A stretch of 64,000 nt of DNA from a virus: IMG/VR virus record IMGVR_UViG_3300011116_000416, positions 1-64,000 of that record; one strand, given 5' to 3'. Positions 10,595 to 61,914 of this stretch are shown piece after piece (position 1 is the stretch's first letter; each line of letters begins with the position of its first letter). The notes under the pieces were generated by a model. The model had not been told where the DNA came from. It saw only the letters and a list, made by a program, of their open reading frames with translations, and ran no database searches. Made by a program: the position numbers and the translations under genes.

Positions 10595-10744
10595 GAGAAA
10601 GACCCCAAATGAAAATACTAGCAAAACCTGAAATGCTTGTAGATGAACTCTATAATGTTATGGATATGCTTGAAGATGTTCAAGACCCTAAAGCAGGGGA
10701 TATCTATCATTATATAAATCAACTTCTATTAGCAGTGGTGGTAG

Positions 10745-11110: not shown

Positions 11111-11111
11111 C

Positions 11112-11279: not shown

Positions 11280-11411
11280 ATTTAATAATAATCCTGACTA
11301 CGACCAGGGATGGCAAGAAGCCATTGACCATGTTATTGACATTATTAACGAAATGCAGTATACTTATGATTGGCACAACCCTACACTAGATGAACTGGAG
11401 CAACGAATAGT

Positions 11412-11600
11412 ATGAGAAAATATGTAAAACACCTAAACAACAACGAACTGCTAGAGCGTATGGCAGAAGACCTTGTGTCAATGCACGAGCAAACTGGTAT
11501 TGACTTGGGGTATTGGGAGACAGCCCTAGAAGTTGTAGAACGTTTCTACAATGTATTTGTTGATGTAACAGTTGGTGGAAAGAAGATAGACAATGCCTAA
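11412..11600 (+). CDS. Hypothetical early protein
   Basis: ORF track. Confidence 0.6.
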   Translation: MRKYVKHLNNNELLERMAEDLVSMHEQTGIDLGYWETALEVVERFYNVFVDVTVGGKKIDNA

Positions 11601-11761
11601 ATTTAAAATCTATGCCCTGCGTAAAATCTGGTATGAAGTACCAATTGAAGCAGAAGACGAAGCAGATGCTTTTGATAAGATTGATGACTGGATTTCAGAT
11701 GACTTTGAAGATTTTGAAGTATCTGGTGAGTGGGAATTTGAAGCGGTAGGAGTAGAAGATA

Positions 11762-11959
11762 ATGCGTAAGATGTTTGAAAGTCTAGTTTTAGATAAAGAA
11801 AACTTCGAGTCATACTTTGACCCTGAAGATGGTATTGACATTACTGACGAGTTGTGGGATACTATTATTGACGATGTTGATGGTACTGTTGCTAACTACC
11901 TTGACGAACTGTTAAATAATATTGTTTTAGATATCAAGGAAGGTATTTATAATGCTTAA
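11762..11959 (+). CDS. Hypothetical acidic protein
   Basis: ORF track. Confidence 0.65.
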   Translation: MRKMFESLVLDKENFESYFDPEDGIDITDELWDTIIDDVDGTVANYLDELLNNIVLDIKEGIYNA

Positions 11960-25905: not shown

Positions 25906-26195
25906 CAGTATTCCTTATCTGTTGTTAGATATTGCCAGGTGTTAGCCCAGTCTTGCTTTGTCTTATGTTTATTAAATTCTCTGGATACTTTACCCTTATC
26001 AAGATAAATACCGCCCCAAACCCCATAAGCCTTTTGGGATACTCCAACTGCAAAACATATTCTAGCCATAGGACAAATTGAACAAAGAGAGTCAATCTCT
26101 TTTCTTACCTCGACATCTTCTTCATATTTTTCAAAGAATAGTTCGACATCTTCCCCAGCACAAATTGCTTCGTCTTTCCAATTCTCATTCGGCAT
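25905..26195 (-). CDS. whiB: WhiB-family transcription factor
   Basis: W...AIC...LFF...CSICPM...C...GVWGG; four Cys plus GVWGG. Confidence 0.92.
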   Translation of the reverse strand: MPNENWKDEAICAGEDVELFFEKYEEDVEVRKEIDSLCSICPMARICFAVGVSQKAYGVWGGIYLDKGKVSREFNKHKTKQDWANTWQYLTTDKEY

Positions 26196-36123: not shown

Positions 36124-36286
36124 AGTCTTTTTTGCTTTTCTTTGTTTCTAGGCTAACTTCGCTTAGGTGCTTTTCTGGACACATCCAGGTAATCAGCTTC
36201 TCTTTTGGATAAAGTCTGACGGTCTTAACCTCAGTCTTACAGGTGTGGCAAGGAAAGGTGCCTGTATAGATGCTATACTTGCCCAT
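36116..36286 (-). CDS. Small zinc-ribbon protein (56 aa)
   Basis: Translated by hand: MGKYSIYTGTFPCHTCK...WMCPEKHLS. Confidence 0.7.
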   Translation of the reverse strand: MGKYSIYTGTFPCHTCKTEVKTVRLYPKEKLITWMCPEKHLSEVSLETKKSKKDYE

Positions 36287-37283
36287 TTACCTTAGCCTTA
36301 ATTTCATCCTGTAGGTCTAGGTCCTCTCGTACTCTTGCTACGAACTTATCTCTACCCTGCAGTTTAGTGCCATCTGGTAGGATATACCAAGCACCTGTAC
36401 GCTCTACAATACCCATCATCTCGGCAGTATCAACCAAATCACCAATGCTGTCAATGCCAACATCACCTCGGAAATAAAAATCGTACTCTCCAGATTGGAA
36501 GGCTGGCGATGTCTTGGAGAACTGGACTTCCCAACGAACTTTCCTACCAATCTTTTCCTCAATGAGTTTATCGCCAACTGCAATCTTGCCTTTAATTGCT
36601 TGATTTTCTGATTCGGAACTGAATAACTTGATAATCGTAGATGAATAAAATTTAGTAGCCTGACCACCAGAAGGCTGTTGACTAGTATACATAGCAGAAA
36701 TATTGTTACGAGATTGCGAAATAAGTACCAAAAGGGTTGGCTTAACTTTGTTATTAGCGTAATTAAGCATCTTCCAAGCATTGCTAAAATCTCTAGACTC
36801 CGCACCAATCTGCTTAGTGTTCTCCAACTGTTTAAGTTCATCTGAATCCTTTTCAAAATAAATTGCTGGTAGTAGTGATGTAATTGAATCAACCACAATC
36901 AAATCTACGCCAGCTGTCATTAGGTTTGTGCCAACATCAACCATCTCGTTGATTGTTCTGGCTTGTGATACGATTAGGTTTGCCGTATCCACTCCAAGAG
37001 CCTTAGCCCATTCTTCTGAGTACGACATCTCTGCATCAATCCAAGCACACAGTTTGCCTTCCTGTTGTGCTAGTGCAATCATCTGTAGACATAGTGAAGA
37101 CTTAGCGGATGACTTGCTACCCCAGATAAGTACCTGGCGACCATATGGCAAACCACCATTGAGTGCACGGTTTAGTCCAAAGCTAGGCGTAGCCTGATAC
37201 TCAGTCTTAAAACCAACACCAGTAGTAAGGTTCTTGCGAATGCGTGGGTCTAATTGTGCCAAAGCTTCTTCGATAGTTGTCAT
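36273..37283 (-). CDS. recA: RecA-family recombinase
   Basis: ALNGGLPYGR, WGSKSSAKS, WIDAE, VVDSI, SGGQATKFYSS, GAWY. Confidence 0.92.
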   Translation of the reverse strand: MTTIEEALAQLDPRIRKNLTTGVGFKTEYQATPSFGLNRALNGGLPYGRQVLIWGSKSSAKSSLCLQMIALAQQEGKLCAWIDAEMSYSEEWAKALGVDTANLIVSQARTINEMVDVGTNLMTAGVDLIVVDSITSLLPAIYFEKDSDELKQLENTKQIGAESRDFSNAWKMLNYANNKVKPTLLVLISQSRNNISAMYTSQQPSGGQATKFYSSTIIKLFSSESENQAIKGKIAVGDKLIEEKIGRKVRWEVQFSKTSPAFQSGEYDFYFRGDVGIDSIGDLVDTAEMMGIVERTGAWYILPDGTKLQGRDKFVARVREDLDLQDEIKAKVNGQV

Positions 37284-37627
37284 TAGAAACGTACCCCATG
37301 CTTTTCTGGACGTGTCTTGTTGAATCCAGTCTTCTTGTCAAGTGCATAGTCTAAAGAAATATTTGTGTAACCCTGCTCTACCAAACCTGCATATAGGTCA
37401 AGTGTGCGGATAAGTATGTCTGCAAATTCTGCAGCAATCTCTTCTTCGCCTTTGTCTTTGCGGATTGCTTCCATAACCTCGGTTACTTCAGAAACAATCA
37501 TCATTAGTTGTTTAGTTACAAAGATATCTACCTGCTCTGCAGAAGCATCATCAATAACTTTCCAGAAACCTTTTTTAACTGCGGTTTCATGCAGTTCCAT
37601 TGCTAGTTCATCAAACATTGAATACAT
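37283..37627 (-). CDS. mazG: MazG-like nucleotide pyrophosphohydrolase
   Basis: IVSEVTEVMEAIRK, EFADILIRTLDL, K..FNKTRPEKHG. Confidence 0.8.
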   Translation of the reverse strand: MYSMFDELAMELHETAVKKGFWKVIDDASAEQVDIFVTKQLMMIVSEVTEVMEAIRKDKGEEEIAAEFADILIRTLDLYAGLVEQGYTNISLDYALDKKTGFNKTRPEKHGVRF

Positions 37628-40600
37628 CCTCCATTATCGTTGTTCCATCTTTTGTTTTGCCTAATGCAAACTTATAAACATTTCCCTCGTCCAACTTCAT
37701 GTATGCCTTTGCAAACGTAGTTGGAAATACCGTAACGCTGTGAAGCTCTCTAGCGGCATCTGCCAGAACCAGCGAAGCCATCTTCTTCCCAGCCTTAGTC
37801 ACACGAGGTTTGAATGACACTACAAATAGTTCATCATCCTTGTATGGCAATTGCCTAAAGTTTAGCAACTTAATCAGTGCTGACGGATTACCCTTAACTT
37901 CATCGGCTGGAATAGCAGTAACAACCCTATTATCACTTGCTAAAACAATGTATGTTCTACCAGCTTCGATTGTCGTATTCTCGTCATCAAAGATACCTGT
38001 GCTACCAGTCTTATCTAGTAGTTCTACTCTTGACCATCCCTTGCCACGCTTGATACTCTTAATCATACCCATCAAAACGTATGCACCTTTTTCTTCGTAT
38101 TCTTCGACATCGTTGATGAATGCGTGATAGTGCTGTGGAATAGAAATGCTAAACTCTGGCAGATTTAGATACTCGTAAAGATTTTCACGAATTTCTTCAT
38201 CGTTTCTAGGGTTGTCATCAAATGTGGCAGCACCTACGAGCCTTAGAGCCTGTAATGCACGACTATTTACGCCATTGCCCTTACCAAATGTAAACGCTTC
38301 TAAGTCTTTATATGAAGCAAATGGTCTAGCCGCAATATACTTATTAGCAATGTTATCACTAATAAACTTGATAGCACTTAGTCCAAATCTAATACCCTTG
38401 CCTTCAATCTTGAAATCAACATCGGATTCATTGATGTGTGGCAAGCGAACTGGAATACCCATACGCTTTGCTTCGATTAGATATTCTGTACGAGCATCTT
38501 TATCGCTCTCATTCTTAAGTAGCGAATACATGAACTCAATTGGATAGTTGTACTTTAGCCATGCAGTCCAGTAAGATACTGTCGAATAGGCAACAGCGTG
38601 AGACTTGTTAAACGAATATCCAGCGTGAGCCTCAAAGTCATGCCACAGGTCTTCTGCCATGTTTGGTGACAGGTAGCGTGAAGCACCTGCAATAAACTTA
38701 TCTTGGAATACCTTAAACTCTTTAGCATCCTTTTTCTTACCGATAATCTTACGAACCTTGTCAGCTTCTGCCATCGTCATACCGCCAAGTTCCACACAGG
38801 CAAGCATAACCTGTTCCTGATACAGAATGCAACCATAAGTTTCTGCTGTAAATGACTTTATGACTTCGTGCTTGTAGTCAATATTTTGCTTACCGTGCTT
38901 ACGAGCAATATAGTCTTTACCGATTGTGTTCATAGCACCTGGACGAACCAAGGCGTTAGAAGCCGCCAACTCATTAAAGTTTTTAACAACCATCTTAATT
39001 AGTAGGTTGGTGTATGGCGTTGCTTCACATTGGAATACACCTTTAGTAAAACCATCAGACAACATACGATAAACATTGGCATCTTCCATATTAATTTTGT
39101 GTAGGTCAATGTCTTCGCCTGTACGCTCTTTAATAATTGCAAGCGTGTCCTGAATAACAGATAGAGTCTTTAGACCCAAAGCATCAATCTTAATTAGACC
39201 AATACGTTCTGCTTCTTCCATGTCCACTGCCACAACTGGAATACGTTCCTTGCTACCTGGAGTTGTTCTAGTCTCTAGTGGTGCATACTTAAAGATAGGC
39301 TCTTTAGCAGTAACCACACCAGCAGCGTGAATACCTGTACCACGAATACGACCACGAAGTTGTTCTCCATAAAGTTCAATCTCTGGATACTTCTCACGGA
39401 ATTCAGCAGTAGATTTTGATGTTAGGTAGTCATCCCAGTCATCAACCAACTTAAGAACCTTGTTCACATCTGGTAGCGGAATATTTAACACACGAGCAAT
39501 ATCACGAATCATTCCCTTACCCTTGAACTCTAGGAATGTTGCAATAGAAGCAACGTGACGATACTGACGGACAAGGTAATCCTTTACTTCTTCACGTCTT
39601 GAATCCTGAATGTCTGTATCGATATCTGGGAAGTCATTACGTTCTGGGTTAATAAATCTAAAGAACAGAAGACCATGCTTGATTGGGTCAACATCTGTAA
39701 TACCGAGAGCATAGCAGACAAGCGAGCCAGCGGCTGAACCACGACCTGGACCAACCATAATGCCTTCTTTCTTAGCCCAGTTAATCATATTACGAACAAC
39801 CAAGAAGTATGGTGCAAAATTCTTGTCTTTAATAATTTGCAGTTCTTCTTCAACTCTAGCGTGGTATGTTGGGTCTAAGTCTAGTCCACGAGCCTTTAAG
39901 CCATCTAGCGATAACTCATATAGTTCTTGGTCTGGATTCTGATATTGTGCAGGTAGCAGGTCTAAGTAGTCTTTGATATTGTAGTCTTCAACCTTGTTCA
40001 TAATCTCAACAGTGTTGTCGTACATGTCCTGTCTTACAATACCCTGGGCTTCCATAGCATTGTGCATCTCTTCGTCAGATAGCAGGTGAATTTCATAATC
40101 CCTAAAAGTAATCTGGCGGTCAGCACCATACAGGTAATCCAACTTGTCCATAAGATTGTCTAGCTTTTGGCTACCAGCAAAAGTAGCATCTTTCTCAATC
40201 TTGTTAGAATATGTGTTTAGGATTAGTTTGAGTTCCTGGATTTCTCTCTGCTCTTTATTTGCGTGATGGCAGTCAGGAGTCACAATTGGCTTGATACCAA
40301 ATTCATCTGCAAGACTTAGAATAGTCTTGTTAATCTCTGGTGGGTTATGTGGCATAACCTCGATGTAGTAGTCATCACCAAATGTCTCTTTAGCCCATTG
40401 TAGGTGCGACTTAGCACTTGCTAGGTCATCCGCTTCAATTGCTTTTGCAAGATAGCCAGATAGACAGCCAGAAGTAATAATAAGTCCTTCTTTATACTTT
40501 TCTAGTGAAGCCCAATCCATTCTTGGCTTCTTAAAAAATCCTTCTGTCCAAGCAATCTCATTAAGTTTGTTTAGGTTCTCTAAACCTTTTTCGTTTTTAG

Positions 40601-40892
40601 CAAGAATGATTAGGTGGTTATAAACCAAGTCTAGTGGGGTATCTTCTCGTTCATTCTTGTCACGTTGGTCAAATCTGTCCTGTGCAATATATCCTTCAAC
40701 ACCGAGGATTGGCTTGATACCCTTTTCAATTGCAGCACGATACATCTCACGATGTCCAGATAGCGAACCATGGTCAGTAATAGCGATGGCTGGCATTCCA
40801 ATCTCGATTGCCCTGTCCACATATTCTTGTGGTGTCGCAATGCCATCAAATAGCGAATAGTGAGTGTGAACGTGTAGTCCAGCATAACTCAT
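37611..40892 (-). CDS. dnaE: DNA polymerase III alpha subunit
   Basis: PHP HVHTHYS/TDHG, GPGRGSAAGS, FPDIDTD, HAAG, YQEQ, YSFNKSH. Confidence 0.97.
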   Translation of the reverse strand: MSYAGLHVHTHYSLFDGIATPQEYVDRAIEIGMPAIAITDHGSLSGHREMYRAAIEKGIKPILGVEGYIAQDRFDQRDKNEREDTPLDLVYNHLIILAKNEKGLENLNKLNEIAWTEGFFKKPRMDWASLEKYKEGLIITSGCLSGYLAKAIEADDLASAKSHLQWAKETFGDDYYIEVMPHNPPEINKTILSLADEFGIKPIVTPDCHHANKEQREIQELKLILNTYSNKIEKDATFAGSQKLDNLMDKLDYLYGADRQITFRDYEIHLLSDEEMHNAMEAQGIVRQDMYDNTVEIMNKVEDYNIKDYLDLLPAQYQNPDQELYELSLDGLKARGLDLDPTYHARVEEELQIIKDKNFAPYFLVVRNMINWAKKEGIMVGPGRGSAAGSLVCYALGITDVDPIKHGLLFFRFINPERNDFPDIDTDIQDSRREEVKDYLVRQYRHVASIATFLEFKGKGMIRDIARVLNIPLPDVNKVLKLVDDWDDYLTSKSTAEFREKYPEIELYGEQLRGRIRGTGIHAAGVVTAKEPIFKYAPLETRTTPGSKERIPVVAVDMEEAERIGLIKIDALGLKTLSVIQDTLAIIKERTGEDIDLHKINMEDANVYRMLSDGFTKGVFQCEATPYTNLLIKMVVKNFNELAASNALVRPGAMNTIGKDYIARKHGKQNIDYKHEVIKSFTAETYGCILYQEQVMLACVELGGMTMAEADKVRKIIGKKKDAKEFKVFQDKFIAGASRYLSPNMAEDLWHDFEAHAGYSFNKSHAVAYSTVSYWTAWLKYNYPIEFMYSLLKNESDKDARTEYLIEAKRMGIPVRLPHINESDVDFKIEGKGIRFGLSAIKFISDNIANKYIAARPFASYKDLEAFTFGKGNGVNSRALQALRLVGAATFDDNPRNDEEIRENLYEYLNLPEFSISIPQHYHAFINDVEEYEEKGAYVLMGMIKSIKRGKGWSRVELLDKTGSTGIFDDENTTIEAGRTYIVLASDNRVVTAIPADEVKGNPSALIKLLNFRQLPYKDDELFVVSFKPRVTKAGKKMASLVLADAARELHSVTVFPTTFAKAYMKLDEGNVYKFALGKTKDGTTIMEDVFNV

Positions 40893-48094: not shown

Positions 48095-51000
48095 TTACAC
48101 TACCTCACTTACATATACTAGCATACTTAATCCAGTTTCGTTTTTGCTATGTTCAATTCCATATACAAGAAATTTTGAATTTGGGGATACTTCAAATACA
48201 TCAGAGCCTGGATTTGTATAGTTAATTTGAACGATATCTCCCAGTTGCAAAATTGGTAAACCAAAAACATCTATACCCAATACTTGTCTTGGTTTTCTTA
48301 ATTTATTAATTGTCCAATCCATAAGTCTATATGCTGTATCGTAGTTTTGAATATATGGTGAATCGATTGTAAACGATTTTGTTCCATATGTTAATCTACT
48401 ATTTTTAATATCAGTATATTGCTTTTTGTAAGAGTTTGGGTCTTCTCCAAAATTAAGACCATCATTATAAGATAGGTCGCTTCTCTTAAGGTAGTATTCA
48501 TCTACCGTTAAATCGTGAGTTGATTCTTGTGTAAACGCTATTCCTAGAATTCTTAAATAATTTCCAGATGTTGCGTCTAATGAAAGTGCAGAATCAGTAG
48601 CGTTAAATACTAAAAATTCTGCACCATATGGATTATCATTATATCCAGAAACAACGTATCCTCTTTCACCAGTAAATGTTGGTGCAATTTTAGAAAATAG
48701 TGCTGGATAAGCTTTTTCAAATCTAACATTAAAATAAGCCATCTCTCTCATAATTGTTCCAAATTCTTCATAGTATATTGTTGGTGCTGGTTTTCCAGTT
48801 GTTCTAATTCCGCTCAAAGCTGTTGATTGCAAAATTCCACTAAGAGCATATCTATTTGTAGAAATAGTTGCTGAAGATTCTCTAAAAATTGAATTAACTA
48901 ATTTTATATCCTCTGTATTGTTGGCGGTTGTGTCTACTGCAAATACGTTTTCAAACATTACTTTTGAGGAACCACGAATAAACAAGCCAACATTTTGAAC
49001 AAGAGGCAATGGAGAAGTATCTTCTACTGTGTCGATAAGACTATTATTTAGGTATATATAAAATTTTCTGCGATTACCTACTGTGAGCTCTTGTTCTGCT
49101 TGAACCGATAGGTCGTATACCGTTGGGTTTTGTTCTGCAGATACCCTACCCTGACCCACAAACTGACCATCATCTGTAATGATTGACCTTAAAGAACTAG
49201 ATAACAATATTGGTTTTAAGACACCGTTAGTTTTTTGTAACTTTGTGCTTGAAAGTGCAACATAATTGCCATTCTCTGTGGATGGTGATTGTCCAGTTAG
49301 TCTGACATAATCTCCAGCGGTAACTCCAGAAATTGCAGAAGATGCAGTAAAAATATCTCCGCTTAAACTTCCAGCAATATTATCTTTTGTTATTTCATAA
49401 GCCACTAGCTTATAAAATAAAACATTATAAATATCACTAGCAGATGTTATTCCTGTAAGAATTGGATTGCTGTCAGTTAATGCTATGATTTCATAGTAAT
49501 ATCCCTCTCCAGCTGCATTTGTGTAAAATGACATACCGCCAGACGAACCACCCAAAACCGTAGTTTTGTTTTTAGAATTTGTTAGAGAATATATGTCTAT
49601 GCTTCCATTTGGAAATTGTTTCGATGATGAAGATTCTTTATTTCCAATAATTCTCATTCTGGTTCCAAACGTATCGTATTTTGAGCCAGAAGATGTTAAA
49701 TTTTTAGTGATTCTATTAATTGATGCAGATGCAGAGCTATCTAAAACAAAGCCAGCTCCAGAGAATACCAAACTTGATGATTGCAACATATCTGTAGATG
49801 TGTCATATTTTTGTGTAGACATATTGTATTTTAGTGTAGATAAATAATTTTTAATTGCATAAGTTGCTGTGCCTAATTTTGTTAATGCAGACACATTTTC
49901 TGTTATGTTGGTAGATTTTTCTTCATTAAACACGTTTGTATAGACACCAGTATTTTCGTTTTTCTTTACATTAAATAAAAACTGGTAGTCGTTCAGGGTT
50001 GATTTTATTGTAGATGTTTGCCAATCTGTAATATTTGAACTTATTAAATGGTTGGTTATTGTTGTTCCAAATTGACCTCTACCGTGTTTTGCAACATCTC
50101 CTTCTTTTAACTTTCCATCTCTAGTCCATCTAGGTTCTGCATAAATTCTAACTTTTCCAGTCGGATACATTCTTCCACCTGCAGGTAAACTAGCAAAATA
50201 TTTTTGATAATCTTCTGTACTTGTAATAAATACTTCATTGTTTAAATAAGCTGTTCCAGATGTGGTTATTGCTCCTGTTGTTGTAGTTTTAAACTTAAAT
50301 TGTGTTAAATTTGGAACTGCTGTAATTGTTTGAACTCCACGATATCCAATAGGAACCACATCCATGATTACTATTTCATCCCCAACTTGCAAGTTATGAT
50401 TTGCGGAAGCAGTAAAAGTAACTTCTCCAGCTACTGAAACTATGCTAGAGTTATTTGCTGGTGTAATTGATATTGGAGAATTTGGAGATGTTACGTTATA
50501 TTGTATTGCATCATATTTTATAATTTCACCATTTGCATAGAAATATCCGTTATATCTACTCAGCCAGTAAACGCCATCCCCAAATTCAATGATATTGTTT
50601 ACAATTTGTCCCTTATTGTTTACCTGTGGTACTGAACTCCTTAATACTGCGTTTAACGGTACCGCACTTAAAACATAATTTGATTGAGTGGATAGCTCTT
50701 CATTAATGCTTTTGGTAGTTTGTTCTCCAGAAACTTCCCAAAGTAAAACTGGCTTATATCTCCAAATCCTATCTTTATCTAATTTACTTGCTTGTGTTAA
50801 TGAACTTATAGATTTTTGAATATATCTATTTTTATAAATAACCTTACCATCATTAAAGATGTCTTTATTTTCACCTTTTAAATTTATTATATTTGCTTTA
50901 ATTCCATTTGATAAATCATCGCCATATAAAACTATGTTTGTGTCCCTAACATTGCTTGTTTCTGGAACCAAAAATTGTTTGCTCATACAAACAAAATTAT

Positions 51001-52856
51001 TGTCCTCGTCAAAAAACATTGCTGTTTGCGTAGAAGTAGCTAGGTCATTTAAAACTTCCATTATTGTTTTGTCTGGTGGTACAAAAAAGTATGGAATAAC
51101 TGGGTCATATTCCCCAAAAGCCCTTTTAAAAATATAATTTGTAAATCCAATATTATCTAGCAAAGTTGCTATAATTTTGCTTAGAGTTGCATTATTTAAC
51201 ATAATTCTAGGTGCTAAAATTGATTCGAAATAAAATGACAAATCTCTTAAATTAAAGGTTACTTCTCTATTTGCATTATCGTATTGAGGATATCCGTCTG
51301 TATACATTGTTTTAACTGGTAGCATATAGTCTTTAAAACTTGACAAAACTGGAACAGATATCACAGACTCGTAAAACTTAAGTTGTAAATTTTTACTTGC
51401 AAAGGTAAATTGTAATTCATCTCCTGCATACTTATTTAATATACTAAATTTATTATTTTGATTAAATGCCTGGCTAAAATCAAATAGACTCATTTGTCCA
51501 GTTGAAGCTAAAAGCTGCCCTACTGGAAGGCTTGTCAAGCCGATGTCTGAAGCCATTTTCTTTATTGAATACGACACTACAATATCTGAAATGTCTGCTG
51601 TTAATCTTGGAGAAAGCTCAATCAGGTCAAAGGTTGTATTGACGTTCTTCATTTTTGTTACAGAAAGTCTTAATCCATCGACATAATCGAACTGTCTATA
51701 TACCCTTGTAGAGTTAGACATGTAATAATCTACTTTATCTGTTCTATCTTCGGTATCTGTTTTTGGAACTATAAAATCTGTTACATATTGCTGTGTGTTT
51801 GTAACAGTTTGTGTATTCTTATACCATCCATAGTTAGGAACAACCTGCTCCCAAGAATCTCCATCCCAAATATGTAAAGTTCCAATGCTTTGGTTTGTTG
51901 CCTTTAATAAATATGCAAAGCCCTTTTCTTTGTCGGATAGATTTGGCAACACAAAATTAGAAGAAACATTATCAATTAATTTAAAATTATTAGTGTATGC
52001 AACTGGAATATTTGTAATTCCATAAGATAATTCTAGATATCCATCTGTTGGAAAATCATCGCCTCCGTTATAAACTGTTGTCCAGGTTGTACCAACCAAC
52101 TTTTCTAGCTTCCATTCAACTGGGGTTGATTTATAATTTGTTGCAGAGCCAGACCAAAATGGGTCATTCGTTCCATCTGGCTTAAGGTCTAGTTTAATAT
52201 CTCCGACATTTGTTTGAACCTTAATTACGACTCTATTTGCTGGAATTGAATTTTTATATTTAACAAATGGTGCAACATCTTCAATAAGAAATTCACCAGA
52301 CTTATTGTAAGAAAGACCAACAATTTCGGTATCACTTGGTTTAGATAATGATGTTATTCTTCTATAGGAAGACCAGTATTTAAATATATCATCTTTTCCA
52401 GCAACATAATATCTTGGTCTAGAATAAGTTGTTTCATTTGTTGGTGGTATTTTGTTATTAGCATCAAATCTTAACTTATTAATTCCAGAACGTGGTCTAA
52501 ATCTAGTAAAACATGACTCTAGTGACATGAGTAATTTTTGCTGGTCATTTTGCTTTAAGAAAATGGCTGGGGTACTACCATCTTCTTCATAGCCACCATC
52601 TATCACTGTATCATAGTCTGTTCCACCATAATATCTTGGACTTGTTGTGTTTTCATCCTCTAAAACAAAAGTTGTTGGTAATGTGGCATATGTTGAAACA
52701 TATCTAGAACTAGCTGTATCATGTCTATAAAAATAATTACCAATAACATCCAGATTTTCAAATATGTTTAGATTCCATTCGGCAATTATTTTACTTTTTA
52801 ATTCTACAACACTAGATGTTTGCAGATGATTTGTTAAATCACTATCTGTATACATT
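48095..52856 (-). CDS. Large minor tail / baseplate hub protein
   Basis: ~1590 aa; C-terminal GLPILQLGDIVQI hub motif; downstream of tape measure and Dit. Confidence 0.8.
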
Positions 52857-53490
52857 ATGCCTCCTCTAGTGTCATTTGTATATTCCACATATCGTAATTT
52901 GTTCTACCACGTTTTTCTACGGACCATGTGAAATTTGTTATATACATTTCCAATCTTTCATTATATTGTGTTAGTTTTGTAAAAGATGATGCATCTTTAT
53001 CTCCACTAACACCAGCAACAGGAAATTCTGCATAATTGTCATATGCTAAAAAGACCCAAAAGGTTCCATAATGATTGTTGTACCAATCTAAAAGTTCTAC
53101 TCCACCTGCTCCACCATCAACTGTATATTCATCTACCGTGCTAGTTGGTGCACCTGTTGTTGTATTAAAATTAGGGTCTGAGCTATATGCTCTAGATGGT
53201 AGCATTTGCCAGCTAACAGAGAGCTGTCTTTTATCGGCTACCCAATAAGAACGCATACGACCGTTAACCATACGCTGACGATTTTCAATTCTTTGAACGT
53301 TAAAATCTAAAGCACTTCTGTTATGGTCAGAAAGTATTAAAAAATCTCCATTATTATTTGAGGCGTTTCCTATTTCAAGACCATCTGGAACATAAATACC
53401 ATTATCAATAGAGCCAGAACTTTCTGAAAACAGAATAGCTTGAGGTCTTGGGTAGGACTTTCTACCATTGATATATCCTGAAGTAGCCAT
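52855..53490 (-). CDS. Distal tail (Dit)-like protein
   Basis: Directly after tape measure; RMVNGRMRSY..DKR...SW, WNIQMTLEEA. Confidence 0.7.
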   Translation of the reverse strand: MATSGYINGRKSYPRPQAILFSESSGSIDNGIYVPDGLEIGNASNNNGDFLILSDHNRSALDFNVQRIENRQRMVNGRMRSYWVADKRQLSVSWQMLPSRAYSSDPNFNTTTGAPTSTVDEYTVDGGAGGVELLDWYNNHYGTFWVFLAYDNYAEFPVAGVSGDKDASSFTKLTQYNERLEMYITNFTWSVEKRGRTNYDMWNIQMTLEEA

Positions 53491-56400
53491 TAGATAGTGT
53501 TGCCCCTAACTCTCATATTGTCAATACGTCTAATTTGTGTCAGAACTGCCTGAGCAATTGTGTCAGGGTTAGAATCAGAACGAACATTGACGTTTATACT
53601 ATAATTATACACTGAATCGCCTATGCTTGCTCCATTATTAATACTTCCTAATTTAGCGGCACCTATTCTGTCTACCGCTGACTTCTTAATTACAAATTCT
53701 CCTGGGGTAAGCATAGCAGGAACAATATCGGTTCCACGAGCAGCCCCACCAAATGCAAAGTATGAGACTAAACCACCTTTAGCAAATGGTTTTCTGGCAT
53801 ATCCAGCAAAACTTCCAGACCCAAGAGTCTTAGTTAAATCCGCATATTCTAATGCATTTAGCATTTCTTGTAAATCTTGTTTTGTATATTTCTTTCCACC
53901 AACAGTTACAGTTGCACCAGCAAGCTCTGCTTCTCTAGCTGCATTAATTCCAGCCCTTTGGTCTTCAAGTGCGGACTGGGCATTCTGTGCCCTAATTCCA
54001 GTAACAATTCCAGCAGCAGCAGAAATATCTCCACGAGACAAAGCATCCGCAAGGTCAAGCTGTCCTCTTTGCTGTTGAGCAATCTTGTCGTTAGCTTTCT
54101 GAATCTCGTCTAATTTCTTTAGCCTTGCATCATATTTCTTATTAATGGCATCTTCTTGTTTACCTAACAATGTCATGGCTGCATTTAATCTAGACTGTTT
54201 TTTGATTGCAATATCTTGAGCAATTTCTGCTGGAGTTTTTTGCTGTTCTAAAGAATCTGTAATTGCATCCATAATTTCGGAAATTGCATTTGTAAGACTA
54301 TTTCTTGTCCATTGTTTTGCTGCTTCTTGTACTCTAGGACTTGCACCAGCCAATTTACCCTTGCCACTAAGAATATCGGCTTGGCTCTTAGTTACTTCAA
54401 TTCCAAGCGAAGATGCCTTGATAATCAAAAGTTTATCGTTTATGTCTTTTAGCCCCTGAACAGTTGTTTTAATACTACTTGGAAGATTGTTTACCGCAAT
54501 GTTTAATAGCTTTATTGCAACGCTTTTATCTTTTATGTTATTTAATTTTTCTCCCAGGTTATCAAACTGTGCATTAAAGGCTTTGATGTCTAAAGTGCCT
54601 TCTTTAAATTGACTAGAAAAACCTTTAAGCATAGTCGATAGATTAGCACCAGTTGTATATAATGCCTTGTCAGTTTTTAACTGCTCTGGTGTTCTTTGAT
54701 TGTTTCCAAAATTATACCGACCAAAGTCCTGAGCCTTTGTTCCATAATATCCAGTTTGACCAGATACTGGTTTCGGCATATTTGCTGCCACAATTTTTTC
54801 TGCAGTAGATATTTGATAACCTATATTTTCCTGAACTGCCTTATTGGTTATCTTATTTACATCAAATGCTATATTTGACTTTCCAGAAGATTGCCTTAAA
54901 GCATTCATAACTGTTTGAATCATGTCATCTTTAAATCCCTTGCCTCTTAAGCCTACGGTTAATGATGTCATTAAATTTCTTGTTTCTTCTGCTGTTGCTT
55001 TTTTAAGTGCGTCTATTGTTGAGCCAAATTCTTTTTTAAATTCTGGTAACCCCAACAGAGCCGCTGTAGATTGCATTTGTCCTACATCTTTAGTTAATCC
55101 TGCAGATATTTTAGCTGTTTCAAGCGGTGATTTTTCATTTGGAGCTATGCCAAAAAAGTCACCCAAAGTTTTTATTTTTTTACTTGTTAGAGTTGCAGCA
55201 TTTCCTAAGTCATGTATTGCCTTATACTCCTTTTTCTTTCTCTCCTGCTCTTGATTATATAAAAGTGTTAATCCACCTACCGCTAAAGCTAATCCACCAA
55301 AAACTGGTAATAATGGAGTTATTGCTGGCAATAAAGCACCAAATCCACTGATTAAGTTTGGGAACATTGATGTAAGTGTTGACATTAACATTACTGGTCC
55401 AGCAGCTTGTCCAGCAATTTGTCCAACTGGACCAGGCATCATAGAAGCCATACCAACAGTAGAGCTAAGACCAAATCCAACACCCATAACTCTATTTCTA
55501 TCTATTTTCTGCAATCCTGCGGACGCTCTTCCTACTCCACTATTTAATGCATAATTAAATCTGGATTTAAATCTTTCTAGTCTTGTTCCCTGTCTAGGAC
55601 CTTGTAGAATACCGCCTTGTCCATCAAAATCGGTAGCAAACATTCCAGGAATATATTTTGTTCCAGACGAAGCAGCAATACCATTACGCATACCCTGTGT
55701 AGCTGCTGCACCTAGCTGTTCACCAGTAATAACAGCTTCTTTAATTTTTTTCTTTGCACCAGCGTTAAGACTTTGTCCATAGTTCTGTCCAATTGCATCA
55801 GCTTCCCTTGATGGAGAAGCCATTCTAGTGCTCTTCTTAAATCCTTTTTGAACTCCTTCTTTAGCACTAGCTTGAACCTGCTGAATTATATTTGTGGCAG
55901 CAGCTTCTACTATTGCTTCAACTTCATATGCAAACTTTCCTCTGGAAGCTCCACTACCAGCACCCATCCAAGGTCCCATGAGTTGTACAAGCCTTGCCTG
56001 TCTTCTTACATCTCCTGTTCTTCTTGCAAATCTTTCTGGAGTATATATTTCTGATGTACCAGTTGCCATGGCTCTAGTTGCAAATTTAATTCTGTCTTCT
56101 GCTGAAGTTGTTCCAGAAAAACTTGTAACATTTTTGCCATATGGATTTATAACAGATGGGGTAAGATATGCCAATGCAGATTTTCTTGACAATTCTGAAC
56201 CAGTAAGACCTTGAGTCCTAAGTGCTGCAATCTTTTTATCTTGTTCTGTCAGAAGTCTTTCTGCCTCTATTCTTGCTTTTTCTACAGACAAACCTTGTTT
56301 TGAAATTAATGATGCTTCTAATGCTTCTTTTGCTGTTTTTCTTGCAAAAGCAACTCTTTCATTATCTGCATTTGCCACGTCAGCCAGGGCTTTTGAAGCA

Positions 56401-59400
56401 ACTGTCCCCCTATTCGACAATTCTTTTAATGCAGAAACTTCTTCTTCTCTAGCCTTAATTTCTCCATTTTTAATTTTTAGCAATCTTTCATCGGCTAACT
56501 TCCCTTGCTCAGATGATGCTTCTAATGTTGATGCCCTACCCTTGATTCCCAAAGGATTATATGCCATATTAATATTTGCTGCTTCTGGAATAGTTGTACC
56601 ACCATAAAGTCTTCCAGTTCCAAATAATGTGCCATATCCTTGTTTAATTGTCTCTAATAAGGTCATATGTCTTTGACGTGCTTCGGTAATTCCCTTTGCA
56701 CCCTGTTTTATTTCATAAACCATTACTTTAGCTTCTGCGATTTCAGGCGATAGGTCTATCATTTCTGATAAAGTTGATGATAAACTTTCTGCTTGTAAAA
56801 TATCTAAATGTGAAGCTTGTGCACGAGTTGGGTCATTCGGTCCTTTAATTTTAAGACCTGCAGTTCCTTTTGCAAATTTAGGTAGACTATCTGCAATCAT
56901 TCCCTTGACAATACCAGAATATTTCTGTGCCTGTTTAGCAGGAATAATAGCTTCGCCATTTGATACCATAGCTAAGATAGAGTCTGAAGTGCCTGAGCCT
57001 GGACCAGAAATTATTCCACCATTAGCAAGATAGTTGTGTTTTGACGTAAACATCTTTCCTAATTCTCTAGAAGATGTTCCAAGGTCAAAAACCGATATGT
57101 TTTCTAAACCATTTTCTTTTAGAAGCTTTTGAACCTCTACTATTTTTGCAGCTGTTCTTTCTGGGAAGTCATTAGAAATACCAATTCTTTCAACATCCTG
57201 TATACTAAATCCGCCTGGCAAATGTGCTTCAATATATGGAATTGCACCCATCTTGCTATCTTTGTATATTGACTTACTGGCTTTCAATGTTTTTGCAAGA
57301 GAAGACTTGTTTGTTTGGAATAATTTCCTAACTAATGGAACTTTCTTGCCAAGTTTTAATGCCTGTTCCCAAATTGTTAGTGTATCTCCAAATGATATAG
57401 ATGCTCTTGCTAGTGCTTCTGGTTTTAAGAATAACGTGTTTTCTCCATATTTTCTTAATGCCACGCTTTGAGGATTAATTAGTCTAAGGAACTCTTCCTC
57501 AATTCTTTGCTCTGGAGTAAGTGGGTCGTGGGTGCCAAAGGAGTCTTTTTTCAGTTGTGTTGGCGTTCCACCCTGATACAGGGTTCCATAATAAGTTGGT
57601 ACCATTTCTTTACTTGTCAAGAATCCATAAACTGGTCGCTGACCAGCACCAGAACCAACTGGAACACCCATTGTTGCTTTTTCAATAAGGGCTCGCTGTG
57701 ACTGAGTGTCCTGTGCTGAACTTCTTACACCATGGAACAAACTCTTATATTGACCTTCTTGAATAAACTGACCTAAAGCATCACCACGCATCTTAAAAGC
57801 AAGCGTTGGTGTTCTACTTGCAGCAGCCTTGCCACCAAAAAGTTGGAAAAGACTTCTTGCATTTGCCATTGCGGTATTAATAACTCCACCAGCAGCAAAT
57901 CTAGGAAGATTATCCATAATCATGTTCTGAATTAAACCAGAATATTTTGCTGTCTGTTTTGCTGGAATAACTGCTTCACCATTAGAAAGCATTGCTGGAA
58001 TTGAATCTGATGTTCCTGTGCCAGGACCTCTAACAATACCACCCTTAGCAAATGCCTTTCTCTTGGTACCATCTCCAGATACGATTGGTCCCATAAATGC
58101 TCGTTGTGCTGCAATAGAACGACCGTAGGCTGCTGTTAGTTGGTCAACTGCTTTTGCTTCTACTGTAAATCTTTGCTGCAGTTTAGAGTGTACCTGTTCA
58201 AGAGATGCTCCTACTGCTGCCGCCTCAATTTGCTTAGTTGTCATATACTTTGTTTGAGAACCAAGGTCAAGAGATGACTTTCCTGTTCTGTTAAAGAAGT
58301 CTTTTAGATTAGCAAATAGCTTAATTAAGTTTGCCACACCGTTAGCAATTAGACCAAATGTCATTAGCAAGACTGGACCTAATCCACCAACACCAGCAAC
58401 TAGAATCATTGCAAAGTTTTTAACGGAATCTGGAAGATTATTGAAAGCATTAAGTATCTTGGTAATTCCATCAATAATTGGTGTAACTACCTTCATAAAC
58501 TGCTCACCAATTGGAGCCATAGCAGCCTGTAGCTTGGCAACACTTTCCTGGAACTTATACATGGTGGACTCTTGCATCTTTTCCATTTCTTTTTGAGAGA
58601 TGTATGCAAGTTGCTGTGGTGTTCTTGCTGCAAGCTCCATTACCCTATTTGCTTGGCTATTTTCATCTGCCACGTTCTTGAACAATGTGGATAGACGAGA
58701 GAACTGGAACTTACCAAACATCTGCTCAATAGCACGAGCACGGTTTAGAGGGTCTAGAGTGTCAAGTGCAGATGCAAAGTTAAGAACTGTTTGCTTTAGA
58801 TTTCCTTGGTCCTTTTCTACGATAGCATTGATGTCAATACCCATCTGCTTCATCATTGCACTCGTTTTAGCTGTTGGGTTAATCAAGGATGCCAGACCAG
58901 ACTTTAAGGCGTTAGCACCCTCTGAAGCGTTAACACCACCTTCTTTCATAGCAGTTAGGAAGAACGTTAAGTCTTCTACATCTCCACCAAGCTGTCTAAC
59001 TACTGGAGCAGCCTTTGGAATTGCAATTGTTAGGTCTTCAATCGATGTAATGGTTTGGTTTTCTACTGCGTTTAGGAAGTCTATTTTCTTTGTTAGGTCT
59101 TCCGCAGAAATACCAAATGCGTCAACCAAAGAGATTGTTGTTTGAAGTGCTTGCTGTTGGTCAATAGCACCTAGAGTTGCAAGCTTATTTGCCTGTGTTA
59201 CCTGTGCTAATAGTTTTGCACCTGTAGCACCAGTGGCAGCAGCGGTAGCAGCCATATCCATGGTATCTTGAACAGTAAGTCCAAACTTGGTAAATTCCAT
59301 AGCAATCTTTTTGATATCATTGAATACCTTGTTTGTTTCTTCTGTTGTTGTAAACATGTCTCCATAGACACGCTTAAACTTGATTGCTGCTTTTTCCATT

Positions 59401-60044
59401 TCCATGAATGATTTTGCAGCCGCTGTACCAGCCATTGTTAGAGGTACGGTAAAACCAACCATAAGCTGACGACCAGCCCATTGTGTGTTTTTACCAAAGT
59501 TTAGAAGATTTGTAGAGCCTTGTTTTAAAAGCTGATTTAATAGTTGCTGTCTTTGTGCTGCAATCTGTGTTTTAGTAGATAAATTCTCCATGTCGAGAAT
59601 TAAGGGTCTTACCTTAATTGCTCGCATTGCACCATTTGCATCACGACCAAGTTTGATGTATTGGGTTTGTAGGTCTTTTACTCTTTCACGAGCAACCTTG
59701 TTTATTGTTTCAAACTCTGTTTTAAAGAATCTTCCAAAAGACCTGGATGATGCACCAGCATATCTAAAATATTCTCCAAGAGAAAGTTTATTCTTTTCAA
59801 GTGAATCTGTGAACTGTTCAGCAGATGATTTTACTGTTGTCATGCTAGCAGCAAATTTGTTGGTAGCATTAATAGAGTTTATTAAGTTTTGCTGTAGATT
59901 TCTTGCTTCCGCTGCGGCTTGAGCACCGCCTTTGGACATTTGGGTGTGGAAGGCTGAGATTTGAGTCTGAAGTTGCTTGATACTAGCCAATGCAGCACTA
60001 GTATCAATATTAACTTTAATATTGGACTGAATTTCGTCAGCCAT
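53490..60044 (-). CDS. Tape measure protein (2184 aa) with internal accessory domains
   Basis: TP901-type TMP core (AMKEGGVNASEGANALKSGL), hydrophobic segments, position after tail chaperones. Confidence 0.93.
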   Translation of the reverse strand: MADEIQSNIKVNIDTSAALASIKQLQTQISAFHTQMSKGGAQAAAEARNLQQNLINSINATNKFAASMTTVKSSAEQFTDSLEKNKLSLGEYFRYAGASSRSFGRFFKTEFETINKVARERVKDLQTQYIKLGRDANGAMRAIKVRPLILDMENLSTKTQIAAQRQQLLNQLLKQGSTNLLNFGKNTQWAGRQLMVGFTVPLTMAGTAAAKSFMEMEKAAIKFKRVYGDMFTTTEETNKVFNDIKKIAMEFTKFGLTVQDTMDMAATAAATGATGAKLLAQVTQANKLATLGAIDQQQALQTTISLVDAFGISAEDLTKKIDFLNAVENQTITSIEDLTIAIPKAAPVVRQLGGDVEDLTFFLTAMKEGGVNASEGANALKSGLASLINPTAKTSAMMKQMGIDINAIVEKDQGNLKQTVLNFASALDTLDPLNRARAIEQMFGKFQFSRLSTLFKNVADENSQANRVMELAARTPQQLAYISQKEMEKMQESTMYKFQESVAKLQAAMAPIGEQFMKVVTPIIDGITKILNAFNNLPDSVKNFAMILVAGVGGLGPVLLMTFGLIANGVANLIKLFANLKDFFNRTGKSSLDLGSQTKYMTTKQIEAAAVGASLEQVHSKLQQRFTVEAKAVDQLTAAYGRSIAAQRAFMGPIVSGDGTKRKAFAKGGIVRGPGTGTSDSIPAMLSNGEAVIPAKQTAKYSGLIQNMIMDNLPRFAAGGVINTAMANARSLFQLFGGKAAASRTPTLAFKMRGDALGQFIQEGQYKSLFHGVRSSAQDTQSQRALIEKATMGVPVGSGAGQRPVYGFLTSKEMVPTYYGTLYQGGTPTQLKKDSFGTHDPLTPEQRIEEEFLRLINPQSVALRKYGENTLFLKPEALARASISFGDTLTIWEQALKLGKKVPLVRKLFQTNKSSLAKTLKASKSIYKDSKMGAIPYIEAHLPGGFSIQDVERIGISNDFPERTAAKIVEVQKLLKENGLENISVFDLGTSSRELGKMFTSKHNYLANGGIISGPGSGTSDSILAMVSNGEAIIPAKQAQKYSGIVKGMIADSLPKFAKGTAGLKIKGPNDPTRAQASHLDILQAESLSSTLSEMIDLSPEIAEAKVMVYEIKQGAKGITEARQRHMTLLETIKQGYGTLFGTGRLYGGTTIPEAANINMAYNPLGIKGRASTLEASSEQGKLADERLLKIKNGEIKAREEEVSALKELSNRGTVASKALADVANADNERVAFARKTAKEALEASLISKQGLSVEKARIEAERLLTEQDKKIAALRTQGLTGSELSRKSALAYLTPSVINPYGKNVTSFSGTTSAEDRIKFATRAMATGTSEIYTPERFARRTGDVRRQARLVQLMGPWMGAGSGASRGKFAYEVEAIVEAAATNIIQQVQASAKEGVQKGFKKSTRMASPSREADAIGQNYGQSLNAGAKKKIKEAVITGEQLGAAATQGMRNGIAASSGTKYIPGMFATDFDGQGGILQGPRQGTRLERFKSRFNYALNSGVGRASAGLQKIDRNRVMGVGFGLSSTVGMASMMPGPVGQIAGQAAGPVMLMSTLTSMFPNLISGFGALLPAITPLLPVFGGLALAVGGLTLLYNQEQERKKKEYKAIHDLGNAATLTSKKIKTLGDFFGIAPNEKSPLETAKISAGLTKDVGQMQSTAALLGLPEFKKEFGSTIDALKKATAEETRNLMTSLTVGLRGKGFKDDMIQTVMNALRQSSGKSNIAFDVNKITNKAVQENIGYQISTAEKIVAANMPKPVSGQTGYYGTKAQDFGRYNFGNNQRTPEQLKTDKALYTTGANLSTMLKGFSSQFKEGTLDIKAFNAQFDNLGEKLNNIKDKSVAIKLLNIAVNNLPSSIKTTVQGLKDINDKLLIIKASSLGIEVTKSQADILSGKGKLAGASPRVQEAAKQWTRNSLTNAISEIMDAITDSLEQQKTPAEIAQDIAIKKQSRLNAAMTLLGKQEDAINKKYDARLKKLDEIQKANDKIAQQQRGQLDLADALSRGDISAAAGIVTGIRAQNAQSALEDQRAGINAAREAELAGATVTVGGKKYTKQDLQEMLNALEYADLTKTLGSGSFAGYARKPFAKGGLVSYFAFGGAARGTDIVPAMLTPGEFVIKKSAVDRIGAAKLGSINNGASIGDSVYNYSINVNVRSDSNPDTIAQAVLTQIRRIDNMRVRGNTI

Positions 60045-60063: not shown

Positions 60064-60381
60064 TTAAATATTACCAAGAAGCGATGTGCCTGACAAATCA
60101 ATGCCAGATGCTTCGTTGATAATCTTATAAACCATCGGAAGATTCAAGATTTCTTCCAGGTCAACCTCTTTTTCCAAGAGCTTTGGCTCATATTGTTTTA
60201 GTGCAATTTTCACACACTCTACAAGCAAAGCCAAAGATTTTTCGTTGTCTTCAGCGACCGCAGAGATTTCATCAAACTTCTTCATAAATTCACGAAGAAG
60301 AGAAATCTTCAGTGGTCTAACTGTGATGGATGTTCCATCAAGTAGTTCTACTGTTGTTGCTTCATTAACAGTTACTGCCAT
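60064..60381 (-). CDS. Tail assembly chaperone (short paralog)
   Basis: Position before TMP; homologous to N-terminus of 60429..61136. Confidence 0.75.
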   Translation of the reverse strand: MAVTVNEATTVELLDGTSITVRPLKISLLREFMKKFDEISAVAEDNEKSLALLVECVKIALKQYEPKLLEKEVDLEEILNLPMVYKIINEASGIDLSGTSLLGNI

Positions 60382-60428: not shown

Positions 60429-61136
60429 TTATTCTGTCATTACTTCGTAATCAAGTCCCATGCCTATACCAAATCCAAGCTGTTGTGCTCTTACTCCCTG
60501 TAGTGCTGTTACATCATTAGGATTGCCATCACCAATACCGCTTAATTTTGCCGAAACTCTTGCTTTCATTGCTTCCCAAGGGTCTTCTTGAGCCTTTCCG
60601 CTAGCTTCATCAAGGTCTATGCCTTTTAGTGATGCTGTAAATTTTTTATCTTGATAATCTGATTCTCGTTTAGATTCTAATGTTGCAAATAATTCTGCTA
60701 ATGATAATGACTTTTCTAGTTCTTCATAATCCTTCCAAATTCCCAACAAGAATATTTCTGATTCTAACTTTGCTAAATCCAGGGTATCCCAAGTACTTTT
60801 ACTTTTAGAATCACTGTCTATATTATTATTCTCTTTTGAGCCATTTTCGTCAGTTGTAAATTTAATACCAGAACAATATTCAATCAGATTATACATATTC
60901 TTCATGTCTAGCGAATCTTCTAGCTGTTCTTTGGTTTTTATTATTGGGTAATATTGAGCCATAGCAATTAGGGAGCATTCAATGAGTACATCCAATGGGT
61001 CTTCTGTGGTTGGTTTATCTAATTCGTCAAACTTGTCCATAAACTGCCTTAGATAGTATATCTTTAGTGGACCTATCAAAAGGGCTGTGCCATCAATCAG
61101 CTCTATGTACTTTGTTTCATATATTTTTGTGCTCAT
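60429..61136 (-). CDS. Tail assembly chaperone (long paralog)
   Basis: Between tail tube and TMP; ELIDGT...PLKI..LRQFM.KFDE. Confidence 0.75.
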   Translation of the reverse strand: MSTKIYETKYIELIDGTALLIGPLKIYYLRQFMDKFDELDKPTTEDPLDVLIECSLIAMAQYYPIIKTKEQLEDSLDMKNMYNLIEYCSGIKFTTDENGSKENNNIDSDSKSKSTWDTLDLAKLESEIFLLGIWKDYEELEKSLSLAELFATLESKRESDYQDKKFTASLKGIDLDEASGKAQEDPWEAMKARVSAKLSGIGDGNPNDVTALQGVRAQQLGFGIGMGLDYEVMTE

Positions 61137-61206: not shown

Positions 61207-61914
61207 TTAGTAGGTGCGGTCGATAATCTTTCCGTAAGCACCAGAGTCATCTGGTAGAAGGCGGAACTCTACATCGAACATGCTTGCAGCATCACGCTTT
61301 GCAGAAACAGTTACAGAGCTAATCGAGATAACTCGATATGCAATGTATACACGCTCTGTCTGGTCTGTTGTACCAGCACCAGAAGCAAACGCTGCCTGTG
61401 GTCCAGGACCAACAGCAACCAAGCTTCTTTCTACTGGGTAATCACCCAAGTCACCAGAAGTAAGGTCGATGTATCTACCCTGAGAAGTTGAACCTTCTGT
61501 CCACGATGGAACAGTTACAGTTACAACAGTTCCGCTTGCAGTTGCACCAGTTGTGTAGCTGTTTACGGAACCCTTCTGACCGATAGAAATTAGAAGATTT
61601 TCTAATGTTGCCTCGGCAAAAGATGTTCTCAGAGTTACTGTCATTCCAGACTTGAAAAGCTTTGCTACGTCTAGAAGCTGGTCCACCATTACATCACCAA
61701 ATGTTGGGTTAAATGTAATGTCAACACCATTGCTTGTGTAGCCAACGTTAGTTACGTTAGCTGAGTTTGTACAGATATCCTTGTAAGAAACACCGTTAGT
61801 AAAAGCTGGCTGGTTAGTAGTTGATGTACTAGTCCAAGTTTTATCTGGTTTCGACAAGAATAGAGCAGCAGCACCAACGATGATGTTGGCGTTTGTACCT
61901 CTTGAATATGCCAT
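61207..61914 (-). CDS. Major tail (tube) protein
   Basis: NIIVGAA.LF, VGYTSNGV, VDQLLD, EATLENL, FDVEFRLLP. Confidence 0.88.
   Translation of the reverse strand: MAYSRGTNANIIVGAAALFLSKPDKTWTSTSTTNQPAFTNGVSYKDICTNSANVTNVGYTSNGVDITFNPTFGDVMVDQLLDVAKLFKSGMTVTLRTSFAEATLENLLISIGQKGSVNSYTTGATASGTVVTVTVPSWTEGSTSQGRYIDLTSGDLGDYPVERSLVAVGPGPQAAFASGAGTTDQTERVYIAYRVISISSVTVSAKRDAASMFDVEFRLLPDDSGAYGKIIDRTY

Follow-up and report, generated by a model that had tools for sequence, protein, structure and literature searches.

Alt of phage T4, an ADP-ribosyltransferase (ART), acts from the phage head in host take-over or counter-defence (PMC5512222; papers given by PMC number are represented, here and below, by excerpts of their text). 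Alt and the fusions of ARTs to MuF proteins, exemplified by the MuF-VIP2 proteins of the Microbacterium phages Percival, Goodman and Johann, are virion-carried ARTs with a presumed or established action on the host as infection starts (PMC5512222, PMC7302621). Polyvalent proteins are giant virion-associated proteins in which variable effector domains are strung together, often with an ART beside a GNAT domain (Iyer et al, 2017, PMC5512222). In phage T5, the tape measure protein (TMP) pb2 is cleaved after R1127, between a hydrophobic stretch and a metallopeptidase domain; the final 42–43 residues of the part left behind hold it in the hub, the enzymatic fragment set free is ejected into the host envelope, and the authors suggest a metastable TMP and a refolding step (PMC10038345). 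Here, we describe a TMP gene in the first 64,000 nucleotides of the IMG/VR virus record IMGVR_UViG_3300011116_000416 (“the window”), whose product carries a cassette of the family of the Salmonella effector SopF behind its conserved N-terminal 662 residues and between two conserved TMP modules. Judging from sequence comparisons, we favour the reading that this cassette is an active NAD+-using transferase delivered to the host at infection, and regard it as rather probable. What appears to be new with respect to the known concepts is a SopF-type ART carried in a tail tape measure, in a swappable slot.

SopF contains the annotated domain DUF3626 at residues 178–338 (PMC6682159). It ADP-ribosylates Gln124 of ATP6V0C, has an “I-Y-E” triad and is represented by the structures 7DN8 and 7DN9 (PMC10333799). 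Its activity is largely blocked by the exchanges E325A, Y224A and Y240A, and the primer sequences place Y224 in PIYAAL, Y240 in SAYGK and E325 in YIEAH (PMC11937434). The gene in the window is laid out as follows.

53490..60044, minus strand: tape measure protein gene, 2184 aa, intact open frame
58059..60044, minus strand: conserved N-terminal 662 aa, including PF10145 and a hydrophobic segment at aa 543–568 (Kyte-Doolittle)
57888..58058, minus strand: module copy 1, aa 663–719, “SDSIPAMLSNGEAV” type
57036..57887, minus strand: SopF/DUF3626-family cassette, aa 720–1003, predicted ADP-ribosyltransferase domain, 284 aa
56865..57035, minus strand: module copy 2, aa 1004–1060, “SDSILAMVSNGEAI” type
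55296..55355, minus strand: second hydrophobic, membrane-segment-like stretch, aa 1564–1583 (Kyte-Doolittle scan)
53661..53792, minus strand: degenerate terminal module copy, aa 2085–2128 (hmmsearch E 2e-3 with a model made from repeats 1 and 2)

The open reading frame encodes a TMP because it contains PF10145 (PhageMin_Tail, aa 252–444, E 1.7e-24; the only Pfam family found in the whole protein), has tape measure families as all of its best PHROG matches (top match 5.7e-96), lies in the corresponding gene order and includes two hydrophobic stretches. The C-terminal region of related TMPs matches residues 700–823 of lambda gpH (8iyk_H, E 5e-6), and aa 2087–2180 of the TMP in the window (P0001) are 52–63% identical to relatives whose C-terminus has this match. 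The initial annotation of the stretch had described two repeats of ~57 aa that bracket a globular insert, and a third, degenerate repeat near the C-terminus. Both full repeats are present, with 284 aa between them (37 of 57 residues identical over the full length; 29 of 42 in BLASTP, E 3e-21), and the third is real and weak. The GC content of the insert (0.388) is that of the whole gene (0.387), and without a compositional shift neither an intein nor a recent foreign acquisition is indicated.

The family of the insert becomes apparent through its homologues. Among 1.84 billion representative proteins searched with HMMER/phmmer, 68 were homologous to the insert at E ≤ 1e-3 and 15 of these fell below 1e-30; the strong homologues are other giant TMPs, the weaker ones shorter or multi-copy proteins with DUF3626. 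PF12294, the DUF3626 model, is the best Pfam match in all 10 distant homologues scanned (6 above the gathering score), and it matches 23 of the 26 rows of an alignment that includes the insert (A1) as well as all seven large multi-copy homologues, one of them with an additional glutamine-deamidase toxin domain. When a profile of the 18 TMP-borne copies (17 distinct sequences) was compared with 23 free-standing DUF3626 proteins, hhalign returned a probability of 99.9% (E 1e-32, 198 columns); the 23 proteins had been retrieved with the insert as query, and their Pfam matches are independent of it. By itself the insert is less easily placed. The PF12294 model (gathering score 27 bits) found no match in the whole genome record and reached only E 0.0045 (16.5 bits) in the relative P0035, the insert as a single sequence gave chance matches only against the PDB (E ≥ 0.57), and none of 50,697 phage records searched by tblastn contained a match to it. 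The DUF3626-like character that the initial annotation had proposed lacks a direct Pfam match but is supported through the homologues. The motifs that it had quoted are all present (YKSLF at aa 766, RPVYGFL at 803, ISFGDT at 883, YIEAHLPGG at 937), and its statement that such domains occur on head-morphogenesis proteins agrees with one of the 26 aligned homologues, which, like the MuF-ART fusions, also carries Phage_Mu_F. On these comparisons, the insert is a divergent branch of the SopF/DUF3626 family with an apparently intact NAD site.

A separate observation concerns four of the distant homologues (P0021, 1687 aa; P0019; P0058; P0066), in which DUF3626 is present in two or three copies per protein. 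P0021 combines these copies with a toxin domain, a papain-fold glutamine deamidase (PF15644).

The A1 profile matched both SopF structures in the PDB (7dn8_C, E 3e-5; 7dn9_A, E 1e-3). The alignment covers the catalytic core from the RPxY motif through YIEAHIHG, and at the latter place 7dn8 reads YIEAH and 7dn9 YIDAH. The three residues needed for SopF activity have counterparts in the insert.

57627..57629, minus strand: codon of Tyr806 (RPVYGFL), corresponding to SopF Tyr224; A1 column Y87 invariant, aligned to RPIY of 7dn8
57447..57449, minus strand: codon of Tyr866 (KYGENT), corresponding to SopF Tyr240; A1 column at least 90% conserved
57228..57230, minus strand: codon of Glu939 (YIEAHLPGG), corresponding to the catalytic Glu325 of SopF; A1 column E220 invariant

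None of the 18 TMP-borne copies (17 distinct) deviates at the positions of Y806, Y866 and E939, and each also keeps the Gly that follows the second Tyr, the GD motif and the GG that follows the Glu. These copies are 34–58% identical to the insert in BLASTP, and the fragment P0003 72%. The putative ART fold, which had likewise been proposed before, is thus supported at the level of sequence by the profile match to 7DN8 and by the conserved NAD-contacting residues. SopF and the cassette belong to the same family by transitive and profile evidence, their RPxY, YG and YIEAH motifs align, and SopF is pushed into a target cell by a secretion machine, as the cassette presumably is by an ejection machine. 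They differ in that the cassette is too divergent for the Pfam model, contains a subfamily-specific insertion of ~45 residues between the RPxYG and YG motifs that is seen in the TMP-borne copies, and lacks the N-terminal ARF-binding part: the cassette starts ~80 residues before the RPxYG motif, and the N-terminal helical part of SopF found no significant match in the insert (7dn8 alignment, score −0.3). Whereas the target of SopF is the eukaryotic V-ATPase, that of a cassette embedded in a phage tail protein must be bacterial. A single-sequence search with P0017, a strong DUF3626 protein, failed to recover SopF.

Compared with the ARTs known from virions, the cassette stands apart in both carrier and active site. 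T4 Alt and the MuF-ARTs, members of the R-S-E (Alt/VIP2) clade, are transported in the head, whereas the TMP cassette travels in the tail and shows the SopF-type Ile/Val-Tyr-Glu pattern. Neither the TMP nor the insert matches any ART family of Pfam, and the conserved columns of the cassette are Y, Y/G, D and E, not the R, S-T-S and E-x-E of Alt/VIP2. The ARTs of polyvalent proteins are described as members of the H-Y-D Tox-ART-HYD2 clade (PMC5512222); the acidic residue of the cassette, in contrast, is Glu (YIEAH, strand 5), and the position of the His is taken by Val, Ile or Ala. A partial resemblance to polyvalent proteins lies in some relatives of the TMP, which pair the SopF-like domain with a GNAT-like segment (below the Pfam cut-off) or a nucleotidyltransferase-like cassette, but the carrier here is the tail ruler, and the TMP in the window has one enzyme cassette only. 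PMC5512222 mentions neither tape measures nor DUF3626 (0 occurrences each). In the literature searched on DUF3626, which included no phage study, and on tape measures combined with ADP-ribosyltransferase or polyvalent protein, judged mostly by titles and the openings of abstracts, no TMP-borne ART is described. Components of ADP-ribosylating toxins have reportedly been found in freshwater actinophages by Ghai et al in 2017 (ISME J), with a possible bearing on the SopF-like cassette.

To place the cassette among its relatives, we retrieved 4832 metagenomic proteins with the N-terminal 660 residues at E ≤ 1e-20 and analysed the best 120 of them (N-terminus 65–88% identical, lengths 1413–3814 aa) together with the TMP in the window. 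In this set of 121 TMPs, the SopF-like domain was called at hmmsearch E < 1e-5, and the content after module 1 was classified in 35. The SopF-like domain is found in 32 TMPs; in 11 it follows module 1 directly, and in 21 it lies behind a mid-protein module in the C-terminal third. The closest relatives of the N-terminus of the TMP in the window are P0070 (86% identical over aa 1–722) and P0071 (83%, with the aligned segment extending to aa 769). Homology to P0070 breaks off where module 1 ends and sets in again at module 2 with 72% identity (82% for P0071), and the slot between (aa 721–1014 in P0070, aa 721–1013 in P0071) is occupied in both by one unrelated cassette of 293 aa. The segment that has been replaced is bounded by the edges of the modules. 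The 293-aa cassette is present in 50 of the 121 TMPs, 16 times directly after module 1, and had no match in Pfam and no meaningful match in the PDB. By its motifs (G-rich loop, VFVKP, RGDKDL..N), it resembles a protein kinase, a label that is unconfirmed.

A third type of cassette occupies the same slot in seven TMPs (P0158, P0081, P0084, P0086, P0087, P0011 and P0139). In P0158, aa 728–856 match PF01467 (cytidylyltransferase-like, 34.8 bits, cut-off 21); the 183-aa cassette of P0081, which alone gave chance matches only against the PDB, is 41% identical to this region. Cytidylyltransferase-like cassettes also lie further along in P0154, P0180 and P0110, and that of P0154 follows a SopF-like domain within one slot. 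The slot of P0094 holds a fourth, unique sequence of 239 aa, and in P0007 the two module types are adjacent (aa 661–717 and 714–769), leaving the slot empty. A HAD acid-phosphatase-like domain is present just before a module copy in nine TMPs, among them P0090 (PF03767 at aa 1563–1704, E 6e-15). In two relatives, L002 and P0007 (aa 2898–2933), a GNAT-like segment lies just after the SopF-like domain. The segment of L002 (positions 9764–11914, TMP aa 2504–3220, strongest at ~aa 2676–2730) has the acetyl-CoA motif R-x-x-G-x-A; its match to Acetyltransf_1 (E 0.004, 17.8 bits) is below the cut-off of 20.7, and its sole PDB match is Naa30 (E 0.037). Three IMG/VR relatives (L003–L005) lack the SopF-like domain.

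The slot after the N-terminal 662 residues is, by sequence comparison, polymorphic, because related TMPs hold other cassettes at the same position. This supports the polymorphic carrier that the initial annotation had proposed: relatives hold unrelated cassettes in the slot, carry the domain elsewhere in the TMP or are without it. The insert looks neither like a plain helical stretch without an enzyme fold nor is it invariant across relatives. The TMP is itself a mosaic, with an N-terminus nearest to P0070 and P0071, and a module 2 and aa 1006–1382 nearest to P0077 (64%). As aa 1064–1363 (window ~56861–55953) have no match in P0070 or P0071 and are 64% identical to P0077, the mosaic extends beyond the SopF-like slot.

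The modules are widespread. By tblastn, the module was detected in 1075 of 50,697 phage records, almost all in genes annotated as tape measures among the matches listed, and by sequence it matches the TMPs resolved in the virion structures of mycobacteriophage Douge (8zdo; two copies, 963–1006 and 1411–1450) and Pseudomonas phage JBD30 (8rk3; 1018–1049) and is also found in the tape measure of TM4. In JBD30, TMP residues 1022–1066 are predicted to form a hook that holds the TMP in the baseplate once the proposed cleavage at 1066 has taken place (PMC11445458). By these matches, the repeats are internal copies of a common TMP element, which in model phages adjoins a processing site; by analogy with T5 pb2, they may be anchor or cleavage elements. 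At the DNA level, 118 of the 171 bases of the repeats are identical (69%), and the longest identical run is 12 nt, which rules out that repeats 1 and 2 recombine with each other today. Support for the earlier suggestion that the repeats act as recombination points comes solely from homology breakpoints that fall on repeat edges.

In the favoured reading, the cassette would be carried in the tail lumen as an active NAD+-using transferase. The TMP would exit before the DNA, so that the enzyme would arrive in the host cell at the very onset of infection. Its target there, a host protein (or nucleic acid), would be modified in the cytoplasm in a way that favours take-over or disarms a defence. Cleavage next to the modules, as in T5, might free the cassette as a separate polypeptide. 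T5 pb2 is likewise a TMP carrying an enzymatic domain that is split off by proteolysis beside an anchoring segment and expelled at infection (PMC10038345). The pb2 enzyme, however, acts on the cell wall, outside the cytoplasm, whereas an NAD+-dependent transferase needs access to the cytoplasm, and the cassette lies in the N-proximal third of the TMP and not at the C-terminus. A wider proposal, which we put forward tentatively and hold to be possible but somewhat doubtful, is that the TMP family forms a modular injection platform, in which each module serves as a T5-like site of anchoring and cleavage, the cassettes behind the modules are released into the cytoplasm before the DNA as enzymes of their own, and phages exchange them at module boundaries. 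The cassettes of such a platform would comprise the SopF-like ART, the cytidylyltransferase-like, HAD phosphatase-like and GNAT-like domains and the 293-aa domain.

Several points speak against delivery of an active transferase from between the modules. Pfam returned no family at E ≤ 10 for the insert, either alone or with both repeats, and the ART fold is a sequence-based prediction. The link to SopF is transitive, because a profile restricted to TMP-borne copies (A3) failed to recover SopF and, through its C-terminal part, picked up lambda gpH instead. The Arg of RPxYG is near-invariant in the free-standing DUF3626 proteins and replaced in many TMP-borne copies. As SopF needs an ARF GTPase and its N-terminal helical part, activation of the cassette may differ or be absent. 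The bracket of modules is not universal, because of the 11 TMPs that carry the domain right after module 1, ten have their second module much further on or have none. Three copies of a globular domain of ~32 kDa have to be stored in the lumen of the tail tube, possibly unfolded. NAD+ is cytoplasmic, and this part of the TMP would have to get into the cytoplasm; cleavage at the modules is likewise hypothetical.

Of the other explanations, two seem unlikely to us to a similar degree. In one, the enzyme acts in the producing cell or on the virion and not in the newly infected host, modifying phage or host proteins or DNA late or during tail assembly, with its position in the TMP serving co-expression or tethering. 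The TMP is indeed made late in an NAD+-rich cytoplasm, delivery is inferred only, and, since the TMPs of T5 and lambda are processed during tail morphogenesis (PMC10038345), cassettes could be trimmed off ahead of virion completion. In T5, however, the enzymatic fragment remains in the tail after cleavage and leaves it at infection (PMC10038345), and a separate gene would suffice for action in the producing cell, whereas the cassette is found inside the ruler between conserved modules in many lineages. In the other, the domain has kept the fold without being a protein ADP-ribosyltransferase: it might act as an NAD+ glycohydrolase, as a modifier of nucleic acids or small molecules, or as a binder of NAD-derived signals directed against host immunity. 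That only the NAD-contacting residues are shared with SopF, while the parts for target recognition and the RPxYG Arg differ, fits this reading, as do the ~45-residue insertion and the nucleotide-handling cassettes of relatives (cytidylyltransferase-like in P0158 and P0154, HAD phosphatase in P0090). The only characterised member of the family, SopF, nevertheless modifies a protein side chain (PMC10333799).

A role of the insert as a structural spacer or plug, catalytically dead and adding only mass or length, seems very unlikely to us, even though the lack of a direct Pfam match, a fold deduced from sequence and a family that tolerates extra sequence (1413–3814 aa) are compatible with it: the residues essential in SopF, together with the G, GD and GG, are invariant in 18 of 18 copies at mostly 34–58% identity, which is the pattern of a maintained active site. 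An artefact of assembly or gene calling, that is, a chimeric contig or two genes read as one, is the least credible of all and close to negligible. The contig is metagenome-derived, linear and ~80% complete, but the frame is single and uninterrupted, the domain recurs within TMPs of many samples and sources that are independent of each other, and the fragment P0004 is 96% identical across the junction of cassette and module 2.

To our knowledge, the enzymes known in tape measures, such as the metallopeptidase of T5 pb2, act on the cell wall, and the virion-delivered host-modifying enzymes (T4 Alt, MuF-toxin fusions, polyvalent proteins) are known from the head. A SopF-family transferase in the tail ruler would unite TMP-borne enzymes with virion-delivered host-modifying effectors, all the more as close relatives fill its slot with other enzyme-like cassettes, and suggests that the first protein out of the virion carries take-over or anti-defence enzymes that are swapped between phages as cassettes. 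If true, polymorphic early effectors would have the tail ruler as another way into the host in addition to the head. The SopF/DUF3626 family would gain a large phage-borne branch with bacterial targets, which could explain the origin of the fold of the Salmonella effector, and with 4832 such TMPs in metagenomes a broad effect on host physiology in natural waters is possible.

The record is an IMG/VR viral contig of 85.6 kb, linear and by estimate ~80% complete, and the phage is an uncultured siphovirus. It encodes DnaE-type polymerase, DnaB, DnaG, RecA and PstS. A gene for a macrodomain antidote was searched for in the record and not found. The nearest cultured relatives of the TMP are those of Streptomyces phages, at ~29% identity; blastn of the whole TMP gene gave just patches of 55–60 nt, in Streptomyces phages, and this, with the empty tblastn search of the insert, indicates a lineage without a close cultured relative. 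The host is probably an actinobacterium, as suggested by a WhiB-family gene and the Streptomyces phage TMPs despite a GC content of 38%. The genes outside the TMP are these.

16871–17890, plus strand: PstS-like phosphate-binding protein
26007–26180, minus strand: WhiB-family gene (44.6 bits, above cut-off)
36273–37283, minus strand: RecA
37611–40892, minus strand: DnaE-type DNA polymerase III alpha subunit
48095..52888, minus strand: minor tail protein, 1597 aa, downstream of the TMP gene (phrog_10359, 1.9e-55)
60064–60381 and 60429–61136, minus strand: two paralogous tail-chaperone-like genes, upstream of the TMP gene (both phrog_10504)
61207..61914, minus strand: major tail (Ig-domain) protein gene (phrog_2175, 1.2e-31; phrog_885, major tail protein, 3.3e-4)

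Downstream of the TMP gene, the minor tail protein gene is accompanied by a gene for a protein of 211 aa. In the two chaperone-like genes upstream, the phrog_10504 match spans the first ~100 residues of both products, and the longer one has an extra C-terminal part (phrog_10474); the tail chaperones may thus be encoded as paralogues and not by a frameshift.

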